Origin: Deltaproteobacteria bacterium
Lineage (GTDB): Bacteria > CG2-30-53-67
Reading direction: 5' to 3'
Length of the DNA stretch: 36,324 nucleotides
NCBI GenBank assembly: GCA_013151235.1
Contig: JAADIO010000059.1
Span: 1 to 36,324, forward strand
Of this stretch, positions 119 to 35,974 are shown one piece after another. Both the position numbers and the translations under genes were made by a program. How positions within the stretch are numbered: position 1 is the stretch's first letter; every line of letters begins with the position of its first letter. A model generated the notes under the pieces. It had not been told where the DNA came from. It saw only the letters and a program-made list of their open reading frames with translations, and ran no database searches.

Positions 119-130
119 AAGGAGATCCTG

Positions 131-622
131 ATGAAATTTCGTACTTTTCTGTCCATCCTCCTGTTGCTGGCCTTTGCTTCCGCCTCCCAGGCAGTCATCT
201 ATAAATGGGTAGATCATCAGGGGGTCGCTCATTTCACCGACGCCCAGGAAAAAATCCCTACGGCCTACCGGAACGAGGCGGTCGATTTCAACCGGGTCAA
301 GGCCGCGGGAAGTGTTACATACGATCCGGCCTCCGGAAAGGGTACGTCGTCACAGCCCCCATCGGTCGAGAAAGCCGCAAAAAACCCCACGGTAATTCTC
401 TACATGACCGACTGGTGACCCCACTGTACGGAAGCGAAGAGGTACTTCGCGAAGAACAATATCCCGTACAGGGAGGTCAACGTGGAAAAAAGCGAGCAGG
501 GCAGACAGGAGATGCTGCAGAAAAGCGGCGGATTCAGAGGGATCCCGTTGATCGACATCAACGGAACAATTCTGCGGGGCTTTTATCCCGACGCTGTGGA
601 ACGGGCACTGAAAGCACACTAA
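131..622 (+). CDS. Selenoprotein: signal peptide + DUF4124 + glutaredoxin/NrdH-like domain, Sec at codon 96 (UGA 416-418), 163 aa
   Basis: RBS aaggag before ATG131. N-terminal signal peptide, then IYKWVD-x2-G-x2-HFTD (DUF4124-like). The frame stays open past TGA: ...VILYMTDW-U-PHC-TEAKRYFAKNNIPYREVNVEKS...GIPLIDINGTILRGF...KAH-TAA(620-622), a complete Grx-type domain with UxxC and the cis-Pro motif. Confidence 0.9.
419..450 (+). promoter_or_regulatory. Bacterial SECIS-like hairpin
   Basis: Perfect stem GCGAAG(434-439)/CTTCGC(445-450) with a G-containing AGGTA loop beginning 22 nt after the UGA, consistent with bacterial SECIS geometry. Confidence 0.75.
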
Positions 623-679: not shown

Positions 680-1771
680 ATGCCGGCAATATCAAAAGTT
701 ACGATGTTCTTCTGCCTGTTCTTCACCCTGATCGGACTGCCGGTTTCCGCCCTCCCGCTGAAAGCGGCATCGTCCCTTCCCGACCTCATCTCTCTCTCTC
801 CCACCCTGCCGCAGATTCTCGGATGCGGGTTTCTGCTCATCCTGGGGATCGTGATCATTTTCTATCTCCGGTATCGGCAGATACAAACAATTCGAACCCT
901 GCGCCGTCATGCCGAAAGGGTCGCCGATGGAGATTTCAATCCCCGGGTCCCCCTTCAGCACCACAATGAACTTGGACGGCTGGCAGAGGCCTTCAACCGG
1001 ATGGCCGACGCCATGGAAGAGCGGACACAGGCCCTCACGAGAACCAACCGGGAGCTCAAAGACCAGGATGCCCGGAAGACCCGATTCCTCGATGTCGTCG
1101 CCCATGATCTGCGCACCCCCCTCACCTCCATCAAGGCCTATTCGGAACTGCTGTTGCGATATCCGGATGAATCTCCTGAAACGCAGAGGGAATTCCTCAA
1201 TATCATTCAGAAGGAATCGGACCGGATGGCGGCCCTCATCAATGACTACCTCGATCTGACCAAGCTGGAAAGCGGCATCCTCTCTTATCATTTCCGGAAA
1301 GTTAAGCTGGACGATATGATCCATGAATCGGTCCGGGTCCACCAGGCGGAATGCCGGCTCAAGGAAATGGAGATCATTCCGATGATCGACGGCCCCCTCC
1401 CCCCTCTCCGGGCCGATCCCGATCGATTAAACCAGGTCTTCACAAACCTGATCCATAACGCCATCCATCATTCCCCCCCAAAAGGGAAGATCACCATTTC
1501 CGCCTCCGTAAAAGAGGAGAACGGAAACACATGGATCGAAGTCGCAGTTGCCGATGAGGGACCGGGGATCCCCGAAGAATATCATGGGATGATCTTCGAC
1601 AAATTCCGTCAGATCGACACCACCAAACTGCCTACGAAAGGCGGGGTCGGTCTCGGCCTCCCGATCTCGAAGGAAATTCTTCGACGCCATCAGGGAACGA
1701 TTCGGGTCGACCCGGACAATCAGCGGGGGGCCTGTTTCCGGTTCCGTCTCCCGCTTTCCTTCTCCGATTGA
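680..1771 (+). CDS. Sensor histidine kinase (2 hydrophobic segments, HAMP, HisKA, HATPase_c)
   Basis: HAMP (ELGRLAEAFNRM), H-box VAHDLRTPLTSI, N-box QVFTNLIHNA, DEGPGI, GGVGLGL. Confidence 0.93.
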   Translation: MPAISKVTMFFCLFFTLIGLPVSALPLKAASSLPDLISLSPTLPQILGCGFLLILGIVIIFYLRYRQIQTIRTLRRHAERVADGDFNPRVPLQHHNELGRLAEAFNRMADAMEERTQALTRTNRELKDQDARKTRFLDVVAHDLRTPLTSIKAYSELLLRYPDESPETQREFLNIIQKESDRMAALINDYLDLTKLESGILSYHFRKVKLDDMIHESVRVHQAECRLKEMEIIPMIDGPLPPLRADPDRLNQVFTNLIHNAIHHSPPKGKITISASVKEENGNTWIEVAVADEGPGIPEEYHGMIFDKFRQIDTTKLPTKGGVGLGLPISKEILRRHQGTIRVDPDNQRGACFRFRLPLSFSD

Positions 1772-15553: not shown

Positions 15554-17314
15554 ATGCAACATCAGGAGCGTGGCATCATTTGTTTCAGCGTACTTTCTTT
15601 GCTTCTCTTACTCTCCGGGCTCTTTTTCACTGCCCCCGCCACGGCCGGTCTCCAGTCCGAACTGACGGCGCGGCTCAATACCGCCTATCCCCACTTCACG
15701 GGCAAGATCATCGGGGGATCGGGGAAAACCCTTGTAGTAAAACAAACTTCCGCCGGGCCCGTACAACCGGGGGCAACGCTCCTCGTGAGGGGAAAAACGG
15801 AAGTCAGGGTCCTTTCCGTTCGAGGAACGTCACTGAAAACGGAAATGGAGCAACCCGAAAAAATCCGGCCCGGCGAGACGGTCACCGGGCTTCCTCGGCC
15901 GTTGAAAACGGCGCTGGTCCCACTATCGAAGAATGCGCTGCAGTATCTCCTTCTGCATCCCTTCCCGAAGGGCGAAATCGAAACCGTCCGGACCGAGGAT
16001 GTACTCACGGCCATGATCGAAATGGGAATCACTGATTTCAGCACCATCCAGCCGGAAGAGCTGTCCGGACTCCGCAAAATTCTGAATGTCGACCTGATCC
16101 TTCAGGTCAAGACGATGGAAGGTCTTGGAGAGAAACTGCTCCGAATCGCCCCAGTGCCCGAACCGGGAGGAAGTTCCTTTCCCCCCTTCTCGGTCCTGCT
16201 GAACCAGGGAACCTTCCCCGCCGCCATAAAGGCTGCAACGTCGGCATCGCTCGTGCCGCAGCAAGTCGCGCCCCCAATGCCGGTCATGCTCCCGGCGAAA
16301 CCGGGAAGCCCCGCAGCCTTTGTGCCCCTCGTGCCGGAACAGCAGGAACCCAAACCGGCGCCGGCCCTGCAACCGTCGGCAACGCCTTCCACCACACCCT
16401 CCGCCCACCGGATGCCGGAACTTTCCGGTTTCAACAGCCCGGATCGCTGGGTCCGTATATTGGAGTTATCCGATGAAGTCGTCTCCATGGCGACGGGAAG
16501 TCTGACGGGTCTCGGGAAAAAAGAACTGGCTCTTTCTTTCCCCGGCGAGATCAGAATTTATTCCTACTCGGAAAGAAAAAACCGTTTCCGGGAACGAAAA
16601 ACCTTGGAAAGTGAGGATCTCGACACCCTCTTCCGGATCGAAACCTATGATGTCAACGGAGACGGAGAGGATGAGGTCATTGGTGACACCGACCGAGGGG
16701 TCGTACTCATTACCGTACAGGGAGAAAATCCGAAAATCGTAGAGAAGCAGAAAGGGATCGTCATTCGGAAGATCGGAGACAATCTCTTCTCGCAAAAAAT
16801 CGCCGACTTGACCGAAGGAAACCCGGTGATCCACCCGGTCTCCTGGAACGGACGGAGATGGGTCGAAGGAGGGGACATCAAAATCCCTGACGGTGCCGAC
16901 CTTTTCTCCCTGGTTTCACTCTCCTCCGCCCCGCCACGATTTATCGATTCGGACCACCGGCTCACCGGCGCCGGGAAGAGCGCACGCCATTCGGGTTACG
17001 GACGTTGCAACATCGCCCGGTTGCTCAAAATCGATTTTCCGGTTACCGGGCGGTCCCTGACCGTTCCCTTCGGGGAACTCCTTTTTTCCAACACCACCGG
17101 CAGCACCTTCAAAATCGGCAAAGTCAACTACCCGACCGGCGGCAAGGTCATCTTCCTGTCCAAAGAGGCGGCGCCAATCTCCTCTCCCCCCTTCCTCGGG
17201 TATGTCGCAGACATCGCACTTTACGACATGGACGGAGACGGAACGGATGAAATCTTCGTCTCCGAGATCAGCTCCGGTCTGACGGGAACAAAAACGTATA
17301 TTCTACGGTATTAG
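15554..17314 (+). CDS. Exported protein with Pro/Ala-rich linker and FG-GAP/VCBS-type repeats
   Basis: Signal peptide; Pro-rich linker; DVNGDGEDEV and DMDGDGTDEI Ca-binding-type motifs. Confidence 0.75.
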   Translation: MQHQERGIICFSVLSLLLLLSGLFFTAPATAGLQSELTARLNTAYPHFTGKIIGGSGKTLVVKQTSAGPVQPGATLLVRGKTEVRVLSVRGTSLKTEMEQPEKIRPGETVTGLPRPLKTALVPLSKNALQYLLLHPFPKGEIETVRTEDVLTAMIEMGITDFSTIQPEELSGLRKILNVDLILQVKTMEGLGEKLLRIAPVPEPGGSSFPPFSVLLNQGTFPAAIKAATSASLVPQQVAPPMPVMLPAKPGSPAAFVPLVPEQQEPKPAPALQPSATPSTTPSAHRMPELSGFNSPDRWVRILELSDEVVSMATGSLTGLGKKELALSFPGEIRIYSYSERKNRFRERKTLESEDLDTLFRIETYDVNGDGEDEVIGDTDRGVVLITVQGENPKIVEKQKGIVIRKIGDNLFSQKIADLTEGNPVIHPVSWNGRRWVEGGDIKIPDGADLFSLVSLSSAPPRFIDSDHRLTGAGKSARHSGYGRCNIARLLKIDFPVTGRSLTVPFGELLFSNTTGSTFKIGKVNYPTGGKVIFLSKEAAPISSPPFLGYVADIALYDMDGDGTDEIFVSEISSGLTGTKTYILRY

Positions 17315-30846: not shown

Positions 30847-33408
30847 TTAGCCGCACTTGGAGTAACCACAGGAAAGACATTTGAGACACCCTTCCGCCCG
30901 CTCCAGGGTCCCCACAGCCCCGCAGTCGGGACAGGTTGTCTGTTTGACGACCACTTGGTCCGTCTCAACATGCAACTTATGTTTGCCGTTTTTTCCGTTC
31001 GTCTTCATGTAGCGCCGCTCCAGGATCCGGGCGATGGCATCGGGGATGGAACGGACCAGCCCGTCCTTCTGAAAGATCGGATAATCCCCGCCGATCCCCT
31101 TGAGCTGACGGACGATCTTCTCTACAGGAACTCCATAACGAAGAGAGAGTGAAACCAGACGTCCGATCGCCTCGGTCTTCGCCATCGTCGACTGTCCCGA
31201 TTTACCGATCGTTGCAAAAACCTCGACCGGTTTGCCTTCCACCTCGTTTACGGTGATGTAAAGGGTGCCGTGACCCAGTTTCATCTTGGCGGTAAATCCC
31301 TCGAGAATGGCAGGACGTGACAAAACCCGTTCCGCCCGCGCTGGTATGGACCTTTGCGATTCAGGGACGGATAATGGCTCAGAACGCTCACTATCTTCCT
31401 TCCCCACGTTCAGGACCTGTCCCGCCTTGCTCCCGTCCCGGTAGATGGTAACCCCCTTGCAGCCGGTCTCATAGGCCCGGATGTAGACCTCCTCCACATC
31501 TGAGATGGTGGCGTCATGGGGGAAATTGACGGTTTTGGAGACGGCATTATCCGTATATTTCTGGAAGGCCGCCTGCATCCGGATATGCCACTCCGGAGTC
31601 ACATCGTGCGCCGTAACGAAGACCTCCCGGACCTCGCGGGGGACCTCCTCCATCCCCTGGAGCGTACCCTTTTCGGCAATTCGGGCCATCAATTCTTCGG
31701 AATAGAACCCCTTCTCGATGGCAATCTTCCGGAAGGACTCGTTCACCTCAATCAGTTTATCGTTGTCCATCACATTTCGGTAATAAGAGAGAGCAAAGAT
31801 CGGCTCGATCCCGGAAGAACAGTTTGCAATGATCGAAAGAGTCCCCGTGGGGGCGATGGTCGTCATCGTGGCGTTCCGCACCTTCGGCATCCCCTTGTTG
31901 TCAAAAATACTTCCCTTGAAGTTGGGGAAGGCCCCCCGGACGGCAGCCAGTTCCTTCGAGGCTGTTCGGGCCTCCTTCCGGATAAACGACATGACCTTCT
32001 CGGCAAGGTCGATCGCCCGCTCCGAGTTATAGGGAATATTCAGGGCGATAAGGAGATCGGCCCATCCCATAATGCCGAGACCGATCTTCCGGTTCCCCTG
32101 CACCCGGTCCCGGATCTTTTTCAGGGGGAACTTCGACATATCAATCACATTATCCAGAAAATTAACCGAGGTATGCACAATACGGGAAAGTTGCTCATAG
32201 TCGACTTCCGGAAATCCGTCCCGGGATTTGACCACCCGTGCCAGATTGATGGACCCGAGGTTGCAAGCCTCGTAAGGAAGGAGGGGCTGCTCGCCGCAAG
32301 GGTTGGTCGATTCAATCTCCCCCAAAAGAGGCGTCGGGTTGTCCCGGTTCAGGCGATCCAAGAAGACAATCCCGGGATCACCGTTCTTCCAGGCCAGTTG
32401 AACGATCTCGTCGAAGACCTCCTTCGCATCAAGCTGCCCCGCCAATCCCTTTGTATAGGGATCGACCAGATCATAGGGTTTCCCGGCCTTGGCCGCTTCC
32501 ATAAAAGCCTCGGTCAGCCCGACGGAAAGGTTAAAATTATTGAGGCTTCCGTCATTCTCTTTGGCATGGATAAACTCAAGGATATCGGGATGATCCACCC
32601 GGAGTATCCCCATGTTCGCTCCCCTGCGGGTCCCCCCCTGCTTCACCTGCTCCGTCGCCGTATTGAAAATCCGCATGAAAGAGATCGGACCGGAAGCAAC
32701 CCCGCCGGTGGAACCGACCTGTGAGTTCTTGGGCCGGAGACGGGAGAAGGAGAAACCGGTACCGCCGCCCGACTTGTGGATCAGGGCCGCATGTTTCAGG
32801 GAATCGAAAATCCCCTCCATGGAATCATCCACGGGAAGAACAAAGCAGGCGGAAAGCTGCTGCAACTCCCGGCCGGCATTCATCAGGGTCGGAGAGTTGG
32901 GCAAAAACTCGAGATTGGTCATCAACCGGTAAAAAATCCGGGCTTTCTCCGGCACGTTGGCCTTTTTATCGTAGATCCGCTCCGCCCCGGCAATGTTCTT
33001 CGCCACCCGGAGAAACATATCCTTCGGGGCCTCGAGCGGTCGGTTCTTTTCATCTTTTTTCAGATAGCGCCGCTCCAGAACACGAACAGCATTTGGAGAA
33101 AGATCAAGGGAAGGTAAAGATTCCGAGGGAGTCACGGGGAAAGCCACCGCAGGCATGCGCTTGATCCCGTAATACATCAGCTTCGCTTCGATCAGTTTCT
33201 GCATGACCGGCTGCGTCAGCGGCTTATTCTTGTGGGAGGCAAACTCCTTTTCAATATCCCGGCTGATCATCGAAGCCACCTCTTCACTGCCGTGATTGCC
33301 CCGGACCAGGGCATCGACAAAGGAATCCCGGTCCCATACGGAAGCAAGCTCCTCCCGGTTTCGATCCAGGACTTCACCAACCGACTCTACACCTTTTTTG
33401 CCTGACAT
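30847..33408 (-). CDS. nrdJ: Adenosylcobalamin-dependent (class II) ribonucleotide reductase with TSCPD domain and C-terminal Zn ribbon
   Basis: PNSPTLMNAG, LSACFV, GGGTG, TNPCGEQPL..YEACNLGS, APTGT, NAVSKTVN, KGVTIYRDGS, SIPDAI, CPDCG..EGC..C..CGYSKC. Confidence 0.95.
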   Translation of the reverse strand: MSGKKGVESVGEVLDRNREELASVWDRDSFVDALVRGNHGSEEVASMISRDIEKEFASHKNKPLTQPVMQKLIEAKLMYYGIKRMPAVAFPVTPSESLPSLDLSPNAVRVLERRYLKKDEKNRPLEAPKDMFLRVAKNIAGAERIYDKKANVPEKARIFYRLMTNLEFLPNSPTLMNAGRELQQLSACFVLPVDDSMEGIFDSLKHAALIHKSGGGTGFSFSRLRPKNSQVGSTGGVASGPISFMRIFNTATEQVKQGGTRRGANMGILRVDHPDILEFIHAKENDGSLNNFNLSVGLTEAFMEAAKAGKPYDLVDPYTKGLAGQLDAKEVFDEIVQLAWKNGDPGIVFLDRLNRDNPTPLLGEIESTNPCGEQPLLPYEACNLGSINLARVVKSRDGFPEVDYEQLSRIVHTSVNFLDNVIDMSKFPLKKIRDRVQGNRKIGLGIMGWADLLIALNIPYNSERAIDLAEKVMSFIRKEARTASKELAAVRGAFPNFKGSIFDNKGMPKVRNATMTTIAPTGTLSIIANCSSGIEPIFALSYYRNVMDNDKLIEVNESFRKIAIEKGFYSEELMARIAEKGTLQGMEEVPREVREVFVTAHDVTPEWHIRMQAAFQKYTDNAVSKTVNFPHDATISDVEEVYIRAYETGCKGVTIYRDGSKAGQVLNVGKEDSERSEPLSVPESQRSIPARAERVLSRPAILEGFTAKMKLGHGTLYITVNEVEGKPVEVFATIGKSGQSTMAKTEAIGRLVSLSLRYGVPVEKIVRQLKGIGGDYPIFQKDGLVRSIPDAIARILERRYMKTNGKNGKHKLHVETDQVVVKQTTCPDCGAVGTLERAEGCLKCLSCGYSKCG

Positions 33409-33813: not shown

Positions 33814-33880
33814 TGGCGGGAGAGGGCGGGAATCGAACCCACCAGGCGGGGTGTTAAGCCGCCCCACCGGATTTGAAGTC
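33814..33880 (-). tRNA. selC: 3' fragment of tRNA-Sec (anticodon UCA); not a complete gene, probable att-site copy
   Basis: Minus strand GA-CTTCAAA-TCCGGT, long variable arm, GTGGG-TTCGATT-CCCGC (5-bp T stem), CCTCTCCC (8-nt acceptor strand), G, CCA: the 8/5 tRNA-Sec layout. Sequence 5' of the anticodon loop is AT-rich and cannot form the D arm or acceptor 5' strand. Confidence 0.88.
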
Positions 33881-34055
33881 TATTTTGATATGATTTGTAT
33901 GGATTAGCCAAGGTCAATAAAAGCATAAAAAACACTTGATTTGTCAAAGAGTTACATGCTATGTTGATTCATGGAAATCAACCTTGATTTTTGGCGTTTC
34001 GTGAAACGTACAAAACCAGAACAAGACCAAAAAATGAGTATCCCCGATATTCCGC

Positions 34056-34082
34056 TTGACGGATGAATTAACATAATGTTAA
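34056..34082 (+). promoter_or_regulatory. TA operon promoter with palindromic operator
   Basis: TTGACG at 34056-34061; perfect palindrome TTAACAT-A-ATGTTAA (34068-34082) over the spacer/-10 region. Confidence 0.55.
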
Positions 34083-34104
34083 CTTCAGGATACAGGACAG
34101 CGGG

Positions 34105-34416
34105 TTGAAAAAGGCACCGGATCAATTCAGCAGAAGCGAGGCTCTCAAACATATCCGGGAAAACTGGGTCAAGGGGTCGATTCTCTCCAGCAGGCATTTC
34201 AGGGAACGGCTGATCGAAAGAAATATCACCATGCAGGATGTGGCTTATGCCGTGAAGCATGGGAGAATCGAAGACCCGCCGGACCTCCACCCGAAAACAA
34301 ATGAATGGTGCTACAGGGTGAAGGGAAGAACAGTCGACAAGATACCGGTCACGGTCGTCATCGAACTGGGAGATCCGGATATCAACCGGCTGGTAACGGT
34401 CTATCCGGGAGAATAG
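34105..34416 (+). CDS. DUF4258-family putative toxin
   Basis: S.HFRERL.ER.IT..DV...V..G.I ... Y.V.G ... LVTVY pattern; directly upstream of an antitoxin-like gene; TTG start. Confidence 0.75.
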   Translation: MKKAPDQFSRSEALKHIRENWVKGSILSSRHFRERLIERNITMQDVAYAVKHGRIEDPPDLHPKTNEWCYRVKGRTVDKIPVTVVIELGDPDINRLVTVYPGE

Positions 34417-34418
34417 CG

Positions 34419-34916
34419 ATGAAGTGCATCAGTTGCGGCGCAAGGATGAAGAAAAAGATCGGCAACTATCGTTATGACGAATCCGGCCTGAAGGATGTGA
34501 CCCTGGCCGGGGTGCCGATATATACATGCCGTTGCGGGGAGATCTCTCCCCTGATCCGGAATACCGATGAACTGCACCGGGTCATTGCGTACATGCTCAC
34601 AAAGAAGACGGCTCCCCTAACCGGCCCCGAGTTCCGTTTTCTCCGGAAAGAGATGGGAATGAACGCCAAAGAGATTGCAAAACTCCTCGGGGTGTCACCG
34701 ATAACGGTTTCACGGTGGGAGACCGGCAACAAGAATATCGGAAACTCCAACGACCGGCTGATCCGCCTGATCTATATCCGGCACCTGGAAGGCCTCTGTT
34801 CAAAATTCATCGATACGGATATGAAAACGGTTCTGTACAACATCACCCCTGAACACTCCGGGAAAGTCACCATCCCCGTCGACCGGCTCCCCGATCTGCT
34901 TCCCTGTACGGTCTGA
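34419..34916 (+). CDS. MqsA/YgiT-type antitoxin (Zn finger + XRE HTH)
   Basis: MKCISCG...CRCGE Zn ribbon; LTGPEFRFLRKEMGMNAKEIAKLLGVSPITVSRWETG HTH; start 2 nt after the toxin stop. Confidence 0.88.
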   Translation: MKCISCGARMKKKIGNYRYDESGLKDVTLAGVPIYTCRCGEISPLIRNTDELHRVIAYMLTKKTAPLTGPEFRFLRKEMGMNAKEIAKLLGVSPITVSRWETGNKNIGNSNDRLIRLIYIRHLEGLCSKFIDTDMKTVLYNITPEHSGKVTIPVDRLPDLLPCTV

Positions 34917-35141
34917 TAACCACGATTGCCCTGAAATCCCGGTCGGAACCTGCTGAAAAATCCGGTGTCTTCATTTTTCTGCGCGACTTTTCCCTTTCTC
35001 AAGTTACTGATATAACAGAATGTCTTCAAAGAGTGGCGAGTTGCACCATCTGTCGGCACCTGAGCATACTCTCATAGCAACAAGGGGCACCAAGAAAATC
35101 GCCAATAACACCATACGGTTAGCCTATGCCACAAACAAACC

Positions 35142-35170
35142 TTGACAAACGGTTATTTTTTGAGTATTTT
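35142..35170 (+). promoter_or_regulatory. Putative sigma70 promoter of the PEP-CTERM gene
   Basis: TTGACA-N17-TATTTT. Confidence 0.5.
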
Positions 35171-35203
35171 GCTCTTGCGTATACAACCAAGGAGGGAAAG
35201 GCG

Positions 35204-35974
35204 ATGAAAAATTTTTCTGGGAAGATGGTTTCGCGGTTGGCGGCGGGGGTTTTCGCTGTCTTGGTTATTTTCTGCTTTTTGGCTGGGAGCGCGGAGGCGG
35301 TGTCTACCGTTACCGCTCGTATTGAGCCGTATGGAGAACAGATCGGGCTTCGGGATGCCGGATATTACAACGGCATCTACATAATTGACATTGACGGCAA
35401 GGACTATCAGGCGATGCTGAATTTGCCGGATTTACCGCTTATTGGTGGTTTTGGAATGGGTAACTCTACGGATTTCCTGCCGTTCCAGGCGGAGCTGTAT
35501 GATTTCGCCGATATTCAGGCGACTGGCGGGCCGTATCCGGACCGGATCACGGCTTCGGAGTATAACCAGAGCGCTGATGTATTTGTTACCGCTCTTTTGG
35601 GATACAACCCGCCGGATCCGCTCTGGGCTGCGGGGCTCGGGGATTGCCTTTGGGAATCCATATATGGCACAATTGGTGCGTTCCAAGGAGACCCGACATT
35701 ATCTTACTCGAGTCGGGTATATGATACATCAACAGGTATGACGATGTATGACGCCTACAAGACGCTGTGGCCCCTCAATCCGAATATGGATTGGAGCGGA
35801 GATATGTGGGTTTTGTCTGAAGTGCAAGGGGTAGAGCAAAATTTTTTTGTCTTCGCCACGCCTGTGGGGCTTGCGGGTGGGGCTCCGGTGCCGGAACCGG
35901 CGTCGCTTTTCCTCATCGGGACGGGTATCGTCGGGATTCTGGCGATACGGTCGTCAAAGAAAAGGTGGCAATAA
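35204..35974 (+). CDS. PEP-CTERM sorting-domain surface protein
   Basis: RBS aaggaggg, signal peptide (AEA-V), C-terminal PVPEPASLFLIGTGIVGILAIRSSKKRWQ. Confidence 0.9.
   Translation: MKNFSGKMVSRLAAGVFAVLVIFCFLAGSAEAVSTVTARIEPYGEQIGLRDAGYYNGIYIIDIDGKDYQAMLNLPDLPLIGGFGMGNSTDFLPFQAELYDFADIQATGGPYPDRITASEYNQSADVFVTALLGYNPPDPLWAAGLGDCLWESIYGTIGAFQGDPTLSYSSRVYDTSTGMTMYDAYKTLWPLNPNMDWSGDMWVLSEVQGVEQNFFVFATPVGLAGGAPVPEPASLFLIGTGIVGILAIRSSKKRWQ

Follow-up and report, generated by a model that had tools for sequence, protein, structure and literature searches.

Replacement of the attacking cysteine (Cys) by selenocysteine (Sec, U) in the CxxC motif of a thioredoxin fold gives the commonest kind of bacterial selenoprotein. 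The UxxC glutaredoxin (Grx, PF00462) is an experimentally verified selenoprotein family according to the consulted parts of two reviews (PMC9312934; PMC13188914), and the tables in those parts also list exported-type UxxC selenoproteins with a thioredoxin fold (DsbA-like, DsbG-like, and thiol:disulfide interchange proteins). The stretch of DNA analysed in this work, called the window, is contig C4 (36,324 nucleotides) of a 2.62-Mb genome that is 99.25% complete. The window carries at 131-622 a single gene that very probably encodes an exported Sec-glutaredoxin in which UGA416 is decoded as Sec. The 163-aa protein is laid out as a signal-peptide-like N-terminus, a DUF4124 module, a linker, and a glutaredoxin domain.

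The closest described systems share parts of this layout. The Sec-glutaredoxin of Clostridium oremlandii (OhILAs) has the same glutaredoxin fold with Sec at the first position of U-x-x-C. However, the known proteins of this family are small and single-domain, whereas the window protein adds a signal peptide, DUF4124, and a linker and is predicted to be extracytoplasmic, without access to recycling by reduced nicotinamide adenine dinucleotide phosphate (NADPH) and glutathione reductase. The YruB family (TIGR02196) is the best NCBIfam match, with an alignment over the full length of its profile (residues 88-161 on positions 2-74 of 74), and Cys-form homologues of the window protein are named 'glutaredoxin-like YruB-family protein' by their sources. 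However, the YruB-family and NrdH (TIGR02194) proteins are cytoplasmic, single-domain, and of the Cys form, and the window protein stays below the cut-offs of both models (81.6 against 88.55 bits for TIGR02196 and 42.5 against 85.75 bits for TIGR02194). The window protein also has an (L/F)RGF(S/Y)P segment, which we take to resemble the WSGFRP motif of NrdH. The Cys-type DUF4124-glutaredoxin fusions, which are uncharacterised and widespread in metagenomes, share the architecture and the positions D28, G31, C96, C99, P139, and G150, but they carry Cys for Sec and are at most 38% identical to the window protein. The DsbA, DsbG, and interchange selenoproteins are likewise UxxC thiol-disulfide oxidoreductases with export signals or from periplasmic families, and the genome of the window has its own example on contig C11. 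Unlike in the window protein, the fold is that of thioredoxin with a helical insertion (PF01323, PF13462, or PF13098), and DUF4124 is absent.

Neither the chemistry of Sec-glutaredoxins nor the notion of an extracytoplasmic Sec oxidoreductase is new, because the reviews list both the UxxC glutaredoxin and the exported UxxC types, and no new principle is involved. What is new is the predicted architecture of an exported, DUF4124-fused Sec-glutaredoxin that is conserved beside a gene for an exported DUF255 thioredoxin-like protein. The literature search returned no functional study of a DUF4124-glutaredoxin fusion among the listed papers on DUF4124, judged by title or abstract. It also returned no Sec-glutaredoxin with a signal peptide and DUF4124, although such a protein may be listed in the supplementary tables of selenoproteome studies. 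The consulted parts of the two reviews do not contain the term 'signal peptide' and use 'periplasm' only for selenite reduction. Published mentions that come near are those of an upregulated periplasmic glutaredoxin in Geobacter and of an engineered exported Grx3, each taken from part of its source.

The frame that opens at ATG131 is closed under translation table 11 by TGA416-418 after 95 codons that end in M-T-D-W. Past this codon the frame runs on with P-H-C-T-E-A-K for a total of 67 codons up to TAA620-622 (95 + 1 + 67), and reading TGA as U gives the 163-aa product with the active-site motif U96-P-H-C99. The preliminary description of the window, made from the letters alone, had noticed the stop in the context W-TGA-P-H-C, had taken the 67-codon continuation for a Grx/NrdH-like domain, and had proposed a Sec-glutaredoxin fused to DUF4124. 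The stop and its context are present, and the frame is intact to TAA620-622 with a PF00462 match over it (residues 88-146, E 1.1e-15, 58 bits against a cut-off of 22.9). The proposed fusion is borne out by this match, by that of PF13511 DUF4124 (residues 10-47, E 7.2e-10, 39.4 bits against a cut-off of 22), and by the conserved TGA, the Cys homologues, and the sel machinery described below. No NCBIfam selenoprotein model reached its cut-off, and the Uxx-star families scored 28-48 bits against cut-offs of 66-100 bits.

A six-frame search was made of 60 related genomes and of the genome of the window itself (G000). A full-length match with exactly one in-frame TGA was found in G000 and in 7 of the 8 relatives from its own family, that is, in 8/9 genomes of one Nitrospirota family. 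The protein identity is 52-76% in the six-frame matches and 48-77% among the extracted orthologues. The TGA is at the same codon in all 8 orthologues, within the context GAY-TGG-TGA-CC and the motif M(T/A)DW-U-P(H/A)-C. The most conserved columns of the whole protein lie after the TGA. Over the 65 codons that follow the TGA, the ratio of nonsynonymous to synonymous substitution rates (dN/dS) lies at 0.043-0.353 for the 17/28 pairs with unsaturated dS. The other 11/28 pairs have saturated dS and a dN of only 0.21-0.31 over the same codons. Because dN/dS is low, or dN is low where dS is saturated, the pattern of substitution indicates that the stretch after the TGA is translated, constrained coding sequence under purifying selection. 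The members of the sister family (f2) and the other relatives were considered as orthologues and rejected; the matches there are Cys glutaredoxins that are either cytoplasmic and GrxC-like or carry an anchor, and they have no DUF255 neighbour.

The database entries of this family are cut or misread at the TGA, as the preliminary description had expected of standard annotation pipelines. A collection of 5.8 billion proteins gave 7 matches. One is the 95-aa product of the window itself and the other six are metagenomic; five of these are proteins of 94-116 aa that all end in ...MTDW, and the remaining one (P0003) is a 165-aa protein that reads MTDW-W-PAC, with W at the TGA site. The likeliest source of the W in P0003 is gene calling with a table that has TGA as Trp. 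Five more truncated forms came from an exhaustive profile search of 1.84 billion representatives; four of them end in (T/A)DW and one in SADW. Altogether, the called proteins P0002, P0004-P0012, and P0099 have 94-174 aa and all end in DW.

The same profile search identified 9577 relatives at E <= 1e-3. The CxxC motif is present in 142 of the best 149 matches, the window's own product being excluded. The alignment A3 consists of 63 sequences, which are 7 Sec forms and 56 full-length Cys forms chosen among the best 150 matches as those with a single match spanning nearly the whole profile. The preliminary description had called for homologues with Cys or Sec at codon 96, and they exist: this column is Cys in 56/56 Cys forms, and the codon is TGA in 8/9 family genomes. 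C99, P139, and G150, together with D28 and G31 of DUF4124, are invariant in all 63 sequences. The Glutaredoxin domain is matched in 63/63 sequences and DUF4124 in 46/63. A Cys homologue from another Nitrospirota genome (L058), with 29% identity, reads VILYMTDWCPYC, with DWCPYC at the site. In the maximum-likelihood tree of 64 rows, which was midpoint-rooted for drawing only, all 7 Sec rows group into a single clade with support 100/99, the other 57 rows being Cys forms. This grouping is consistent with a single change from Cys to Sec.

Other glutaredoxin matches with a TGA were seen in further genomes. A small single-domain Sec-glutaredoxin (L037; G019:C99, frame around 1453-1755, 101 aa) in an unrelated genome reads ...VVVYSTPT-U-PYC... 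and is of the classical cytoplasmic type, with neither a hydrophobic N-terminus nor DUF4124. Genome G053 has two weak glutaredoxin-like matches with one TGA each.

The genome of the window has a complete set of genes for Sec decoding. The gene selC (C19:29724-29817, 73.3 bits) is called tRNA-SeC (tca) by ARAGORN, and selB (C26:64722-66611, 422.6 bits), selA (620.4 bits), and selD (370.4 bits, with its own in-frame TGA at GAGUACK) were found, all four genes being above curated cut-offs. The gene selB is also above the cut-off in 7/8 relatives and was not found in the eighth (G002, 93% complete). The preliminary description would have been given up if homologues ended at codon 96 or if selA, selB, and a full selC were missing from the genome; the homologues continue past that codon, and these genes are present together with selD. 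The genetic code of the genome is standard. A reassigned code (TGA as Trp or Gly) was considered and rejected, since TGA is the commonest ordinary stop, closing 923/1791 stop-to-stop frames of at least 300 codons, and it ends both neighbouring genes.

A hairpin with perfect GCGAAG/CTTCGC arms had been reported after the UGA, and it stands at the place described. The hairpin has 17 nt, with the arms GCGAAG (434-439) and CTTCGC (445-450) around the loop AGGTA (440-444); the hairpin starts 15 nt and the loop 21 nt after the TGA. The 8/8 orthologues keep the arms GCGAAG/CUUCG(C/U), the 6-bp stem, and a loop AG(G/U)U(A/U). The isolated hairpins of the 8 orthologues have free energies (dG) of -5.2 to -6.6 kcal/mol, and RNAalifold returns exactly this 6-bp helix. 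The minimal selenocysteine insertion sequence (SECIS) of E. coli fdhF has 17 nt and lies 11 nt after the UGA, with a loop G-U contacted by SelB, and bSECISearch accepts 16-37 nt from UGA to loop. The candidate SECIS of the window resembles the fdhF type in being a short in-frame hairpin just 3' of the UGA with an apical-loop G-U, and its position fits these features. It differs in sequence, no bulged U is evident here, and it has no Rfam match.

The synonymous sites give a further line of evidence. Between codon positions -8 and +65 relative to the TGA, the columns were examined in which the amino acid is invariant and the codon is degenerate (n=29). The codon is invariant in just 3/29 columns, which are Ala+6 GCG, Lys+7 AAG, and Phe+10 TTC, all in the hairpin arms, and the remaining 26/29 columns all vary. 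This freezing of synonymous sites in the arms is a stronger argument for the hairpin than covariation and indicates a constraint at the RNA level. As a control, 69 Cys-form loci were searched, and 9 have any stem of at least 6 bp in the search range. The 71 nt at 410-480 of the window fold at -29.9 kcal/mol (z = -4.85), and 0/200 shuffled sequences are as stable. A lower SECIS stem was considered as a family feature and rejected, as it was recovered neither by RNAalifold nor in the single folds of the orthologues.

Hairpins also follow the other two UGA-Sec sites that were examined in the genome. The selD UGA is followed by ccca-AGUUC-uggg with its loop 32 nt downstream (C53 about 16298-16315), and the UGA of a DsbA-like gene is followed by the 7-bp hairpin cuccggc-AGGU-gcuggag with its loop 34 nt downstream. 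A loop beginning with AG(G/U)U thus follows all three sites, and such hairpins occur at 0.73% of 20000 random sites. The AG(G/U)U loop is a possible lineage-specific motif for recognition by SelB.

Several findings weigh against the decoding of UGA416 as Sec or against the hairpin as its signal. The hairpin has no compensatory double changes among the 8 orthologues, where five pairs are invariant and one alternates between G-C and G-U (4:4), and therefore covariation cannot prove it. One of the 69 Cys-form loci (L065) has identical arms after TGC, with the loop UCCUU that lacks G, and therefore codons for A-K-x-F-F-A can form the stem by chance. Chance at roughly the rate of L065 fails to explain a hairpin in 8/8 orthologues. 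For the orthologues, the z-scores of the 71-nt folds range from +0.64 to -2.14, and the minimum free energy (MFE) structure includes the apical hairpin in 5/7. No Rfam family was found at the site at gathering thresholds or at E <= 1, the weak matches to mir-186 and Xoo8 at E <= 1 being set aside as chance. The comparison of the loop motif is exploratory, since its length and distance ranges were fixed after all three sites had been seen. One genome of the same family (G005) has selB and lacks the gene, with only a small unrelated glutaredoxin match there. The TGA is supported by independent assemblies rather than by reads.

The locus L065 (nt 2069-2782) is itself a Cys-form (TGC) exported glutaredoxin from a Thermoanaerobaculia metagenome-assembled genome with the arms GCGAAG...CUUCGC at the same offset. 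Its hairpin may have arisen by chance from the A-K-S-F-F-A codons, or conceivably it is a pre-adapted or fossil SECIS.

The TGA could be a true stop, with a 95-aa product of signal peptide and DUF4124 and with the glutaredoxin frame as an untranslated remnant or a separate gene. The gene callers end their proteins exactly there and TGA is the commonest stop of the genome, but the 65 codons after it are under purifying selection across 8 species at near-saturated synonymous change, the most conserved columns of the protein lie past it, and it falls exactly on the column of the invariant catalytic Cys. The first in-frame start 3' of the TGA is GTG482, and a restart at this codon would lose strand 1 and the active site. 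We regard a true stop as very unlikely, although some termination at UGA is expected for any bacterial selenoprotein and a short product with DUF4124 only may be made beside the full-length protein. That the TGA came from an error in sequencing or assembly, or from a recent nonsense mutation that left a pseudogene, is effectively refuted and deserves almost no credence. The gene starts 130 nt from the contig end, where such an error might be suspected, but the same TGA occurs in 8 genomes from independent assemblies and in additional metagenomic contigs, which therefore excludes an assembly error or a private nonsense mutation, and the downstream frame is intact and constrained.

A further explanation is that the UGA is read through without Sec, by near-cognate insertion of Trp or Cys or by local recoding that is independent of SelB. 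The W in P0003 and the hairpin without compensatory covariation speak for it. However, the Sec machinery is complete and specific, the UGA of selD is at the canonical Sec position, and related loops are found in the hairpins after the other two UGA sites examined. The site is also that of the nucleophilic Cys of CxxC, which is the classic position of Sec, and Trp at this position would inactivate the domain. Read-through without Sec is thus highly improbable, and decoding of UGA416 as Sec is the preferred explanation.

The structure of the 163-aa protein was modelled with AlphaFold (AF2) on the 63-sequence alignment. The model has a mean predicted local distance difference test score (pLDDT) of 87.8 and a predicted template modelling score (pTM) of 0.58. 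It exhibits an N-terminal helix (residues 2-19), a DUF4124 module (22-64) with strands 24-27 and 33-36, helix 44-49, and strand 62-64, and a glutaredoxin domain (88-162) of the minimal beta-alpha-beta-alpha-beta-beta-alpha type. Strand 88-92 and helix 97-108 open this domain, and U96 is placed just before the helix. The best PDB match by Foldseek is 7c10_A (TM 0.92 normalised to the target, root-mean-square deviation 1.0 A, 32% identity), which is also the best PDB match by sequence (E 7.8e-11). Its title is 'Dithiol cGrx1', and it probably comes from the clostridial glutaredoxin set, judged by PDB titles and the reference list of a review. Another top match is the thioredoxin-like BC3987, and the NrdH-redoxins rank lower. 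The linker of the window protein is about 11-19 residues shorter than those of the other orthologues. The window protein and P0004 are without the conserved amphipathic linker segment ...EP(Y/F)YKRFLRQ(L)EEE... of most orthologues, and therefore the linker is dispensable or variable.

The N-terminus MKFRTFLSILLLLAFASASQA is charged at K2 and R4 and has a hydrophobic core free of charges; the residues at -3 and -1 are small, V22 follows, and there is no lipobox. All 8 orthologues keep this charged-hydrophobic-small layout despite little sequence identity. From these features we infer that residues 1-21 are a signal peptide of the general secretory (Sec) type and that the protein is extracytoplasmic. 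The gonococcal TfpC, the one studied DUF4124 protein that was found, is predicted to be periplasmic by its authors in the consulted part of their paper (PMC7593972), and by analogy this prediction supports export of the DUF4124-glutaredoxin. The N-terminus might instead remain uncleaved and tether the selenoprotein to the outer face of the cytoplasmic membrane, which also weighs against the proposed cleaved signal. Anchor-like hydrophobic N-termini do occur in related Cys-form glutaredoxin-domain proteins of other phyla (L059, L060, L090, and L030). In the c-region A-S-Q-A before V, however, the residues at -3 and -1 are small, and equivalents in the orthologues, such as SSA|A, AFG|E, and ALG|E, fit sites of signal peptidase I. 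We consider an anchor unlikely, and a cytoplasmic location less likely still. Whether the N-terminus is cleaved or anchored leaves the claim of an extracytoplasmic Sec-glutaredoxin unchanged.

The features of the locus and the two genes downstream of it are shown in Table 1.

Table 1. Positions of the features of the Sec-glutaredoxin gene and its downstream neighbours in the window.
Feature	Position	Strand	Basis
Shine-Dalgarno-like AGGAG, 6 nt 5' of ATG131	120..124	+	Read off the sequence
Full coding sequence, predicted DUF4124-glutaredoxin selenoprotein, 163 aa and TAA	131..622	+	Translation with TGA=U; full-length one-TGA orthologues in 7 related genomes
Signal-peptide-like N-terminus, residues 1-21, MKFRTFLSILLLLAFASASQA, putative cleavage before V22	131..193	+	Sequence features; helix in model
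DUF4124 module, Pfam residues 10-47, structured part of model 22-64	158..322	+	PF13511; AF2 model
Low-confidence linker, residues 65-87	323..391	+	Block-mean pLDDT 52-77; alignment gap against orthologues
Glutaredoxin/NrdH-like domain, residues 88-163	392..619	+	PF00462; model; Foldseek
In-frame TGA read as Sec (U96), first position of U-P-H-C	416..418	+	Codon invariant in 8 orthologues; aligns with invariant Cys of 56 homologues
Extended lower stem including UGA, this genome only	416..478	+	MFE fold; not conserved as aligned pairs in orthologues
TGT, resolving Cys99 of UxxC	425..427	+	C99 column invariant in 63 sequences
Putative SECIS apical hairpin GCGAAG-AGGUA-CUUCGC	434..450	+	8/8 orthologues; frozen synonymous sites; shared loop motif
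Codon of Pro139, conserved cis-Pro position of thioredoxin folds	545..547	+	P139 column invariant in 63 sequences
HAMP/HisKA/HATPase sensor histidine kinase	680..1771	+	Pfam; tblastn synteny in G001, G002, G004, and G007
744-aa DUF255/Thioredox_DsbH protein with hydrophobic N-terminus, C92-H-W-C95	1848..4082	+	PF03190, 251.6 bits

The DUF255 gene lies downstream of the Sec-glutaredoxin gene in G001, G002, G003, G004, G006, and G008 by tblastn, with the kinase between the two genes in G001, G002, and G004. This placement of the kinase is confined to some genera. The kinase follows the glutaredoxin gene in G007 as well, where the locus ends before any DUF255 gene could show. A DUF255 neighbour was not seen at L058, the sole Cys-form locus checked for synteny. 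No terminator-like site was found on the plus strand between the Sec-glutaredoxin, kinase, and DUF255 genes. A conserved upstream partner was looked for and rejected; L056 has a CopD-like gene and genes without assignment upstream, and L052 has ThiI-like, FIST, and YHS genes. The DUF255 protein of the window is joined to a part that resembles six-hairpin glycosidases, with a weak Glyco_hydro_88 match.

The genome has a CcdA/DsbD-type membrane protein (70.4 bits) and two DsbA-like/Thioredoxin_4 genes, one of which encodes a UxxC selenoprotein. Neither DsbB nor VKOR was found, at 99.25% completeness of the genome. A role of the Sec-glutaredoxin as a stand-in for a missing DsbA was rejected in view of the two DsbA-like/Thioredoxin_4 genes. 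A glutathione-synthetase-type domain is also present (168 bits), by a model that matches genomes not known to make glutathione as well.

The following mechanism is proposed from the sequence pattern for the export, the Sec insertion, and the physiological role of the DUF4124-glutaredoxin. By analogy with established Sec decoding in bacteria, SelB with Sec-tRNA(Sec) would decode UGA416 as Sec in competition with release factor 2, and the hairpin at 434-450, whose loop AGGUA contains G-U, would recruit SelB. The 21 N-terminal residues would act as the signal peptide and leave a mature protein of about 142 aa outside the cytoplasm. U96-P-H-C99 would be at the start of helix 1, opposite cis-Pro139, and the protein would be a thiol-disulfide oxidoreductase by homology. 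Following the established chemistry of thioredoxin folds, the selenolate of U96 would attack a substrate disulfide or an oxidised thiol, and C99 would resolve the selenenylsulfide. The likeliest context would be an envelope thiol-redox module with the conserved downstream DUF255/DsbH-like CHWC protein, which is also predicted to be exported, and electrons may be supplied by a CcdA/DsbD-type membrane protein or by low-molecular-weight thiols of the periplasm. The Sec form would have arisen once, in one uncultured Nitrospirota family, from the widespread Cys-type DUF4124-glutaredoxin family.

The cooperation with the DUF255 protein, the electron supply from CcdA/DsbD or thiols, and a DUF4124-only by-product at scarce selenium are speculative. 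An extended proposal is that the Sec-glutaredoxin and the DUF255/CHWC protein form a dedicated selenium-dependent envelope relay for thiol redox in which DUF4124 docks the domain with the selenol to a partner or a structure of the envelope, termination at UGA gives a DUF4124-only protein, insertion of Sec gives the full-length enzyme, and the selenium supply sets the ratio of the two products. This proposal is doubtful and we give it a low probability. If it were true, it would describe a periplasmic redox system switched by selenium availability in bacteria in which neither DsbB nor VKOR was found.

The family also bears on annotation and on function. Selenoproteins are systematically lost in automated annotation; every family entry seen is cut or misread at the UGA and no NCBIfam model covers the family, and therefore a clade-specific family is hidden in public data. 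The Sec and Cys forms are a natural pair within one architecture, which lets one ask what selenium gains an envelope oxidoreductase. Thiol redox is a pointer to what at least one branch of the uncharacterised DUF4124 proteins does, and the AG(G/U)U loop motif could help to find further selenoproteins in this phylum.

The DsbA-like/Thioredoxin_4 gene with an in-frame TGA is at C11:77632-78099 (minus strand) and appears to encode a second exported-looking UxxC selenoprotein. It has one in-frame TGA within FDDYQ-U-PYC, a signal-peptide-like N-terminus, and an extra N-terminal domain, and it looks unannotated.

The preliminary description had also noticed a fragment of tRNA-Sec in the same window, and blastn-short confirms it as an exact copy. 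The window at 33880..33818 (minus strand) is 63/63 identical to nt 32-94 of selC, from the anticodon loop to the 3' end, and the full selC is on contig C19. The fragment is called neither by ARAGORN (0 genes) nor by Rfam, because only the 3' two-thirds of the tRNA is present. It looks like an att-site duplicate that was left behind when an element integrated into the gene for tRNA-Sec, and no integrase was found between the fragment and the contig end at 36324. One flank consists of an open reading frame without a Pfam match (33955-34290, minus strand), a helix-turn-helix (HTH)/MqsA-antitoxin-like gene (34305-34913), and a PEP-CTERM protein (35126-35971), and a ribonucleotide reductase (30850-33408) is on the other side.

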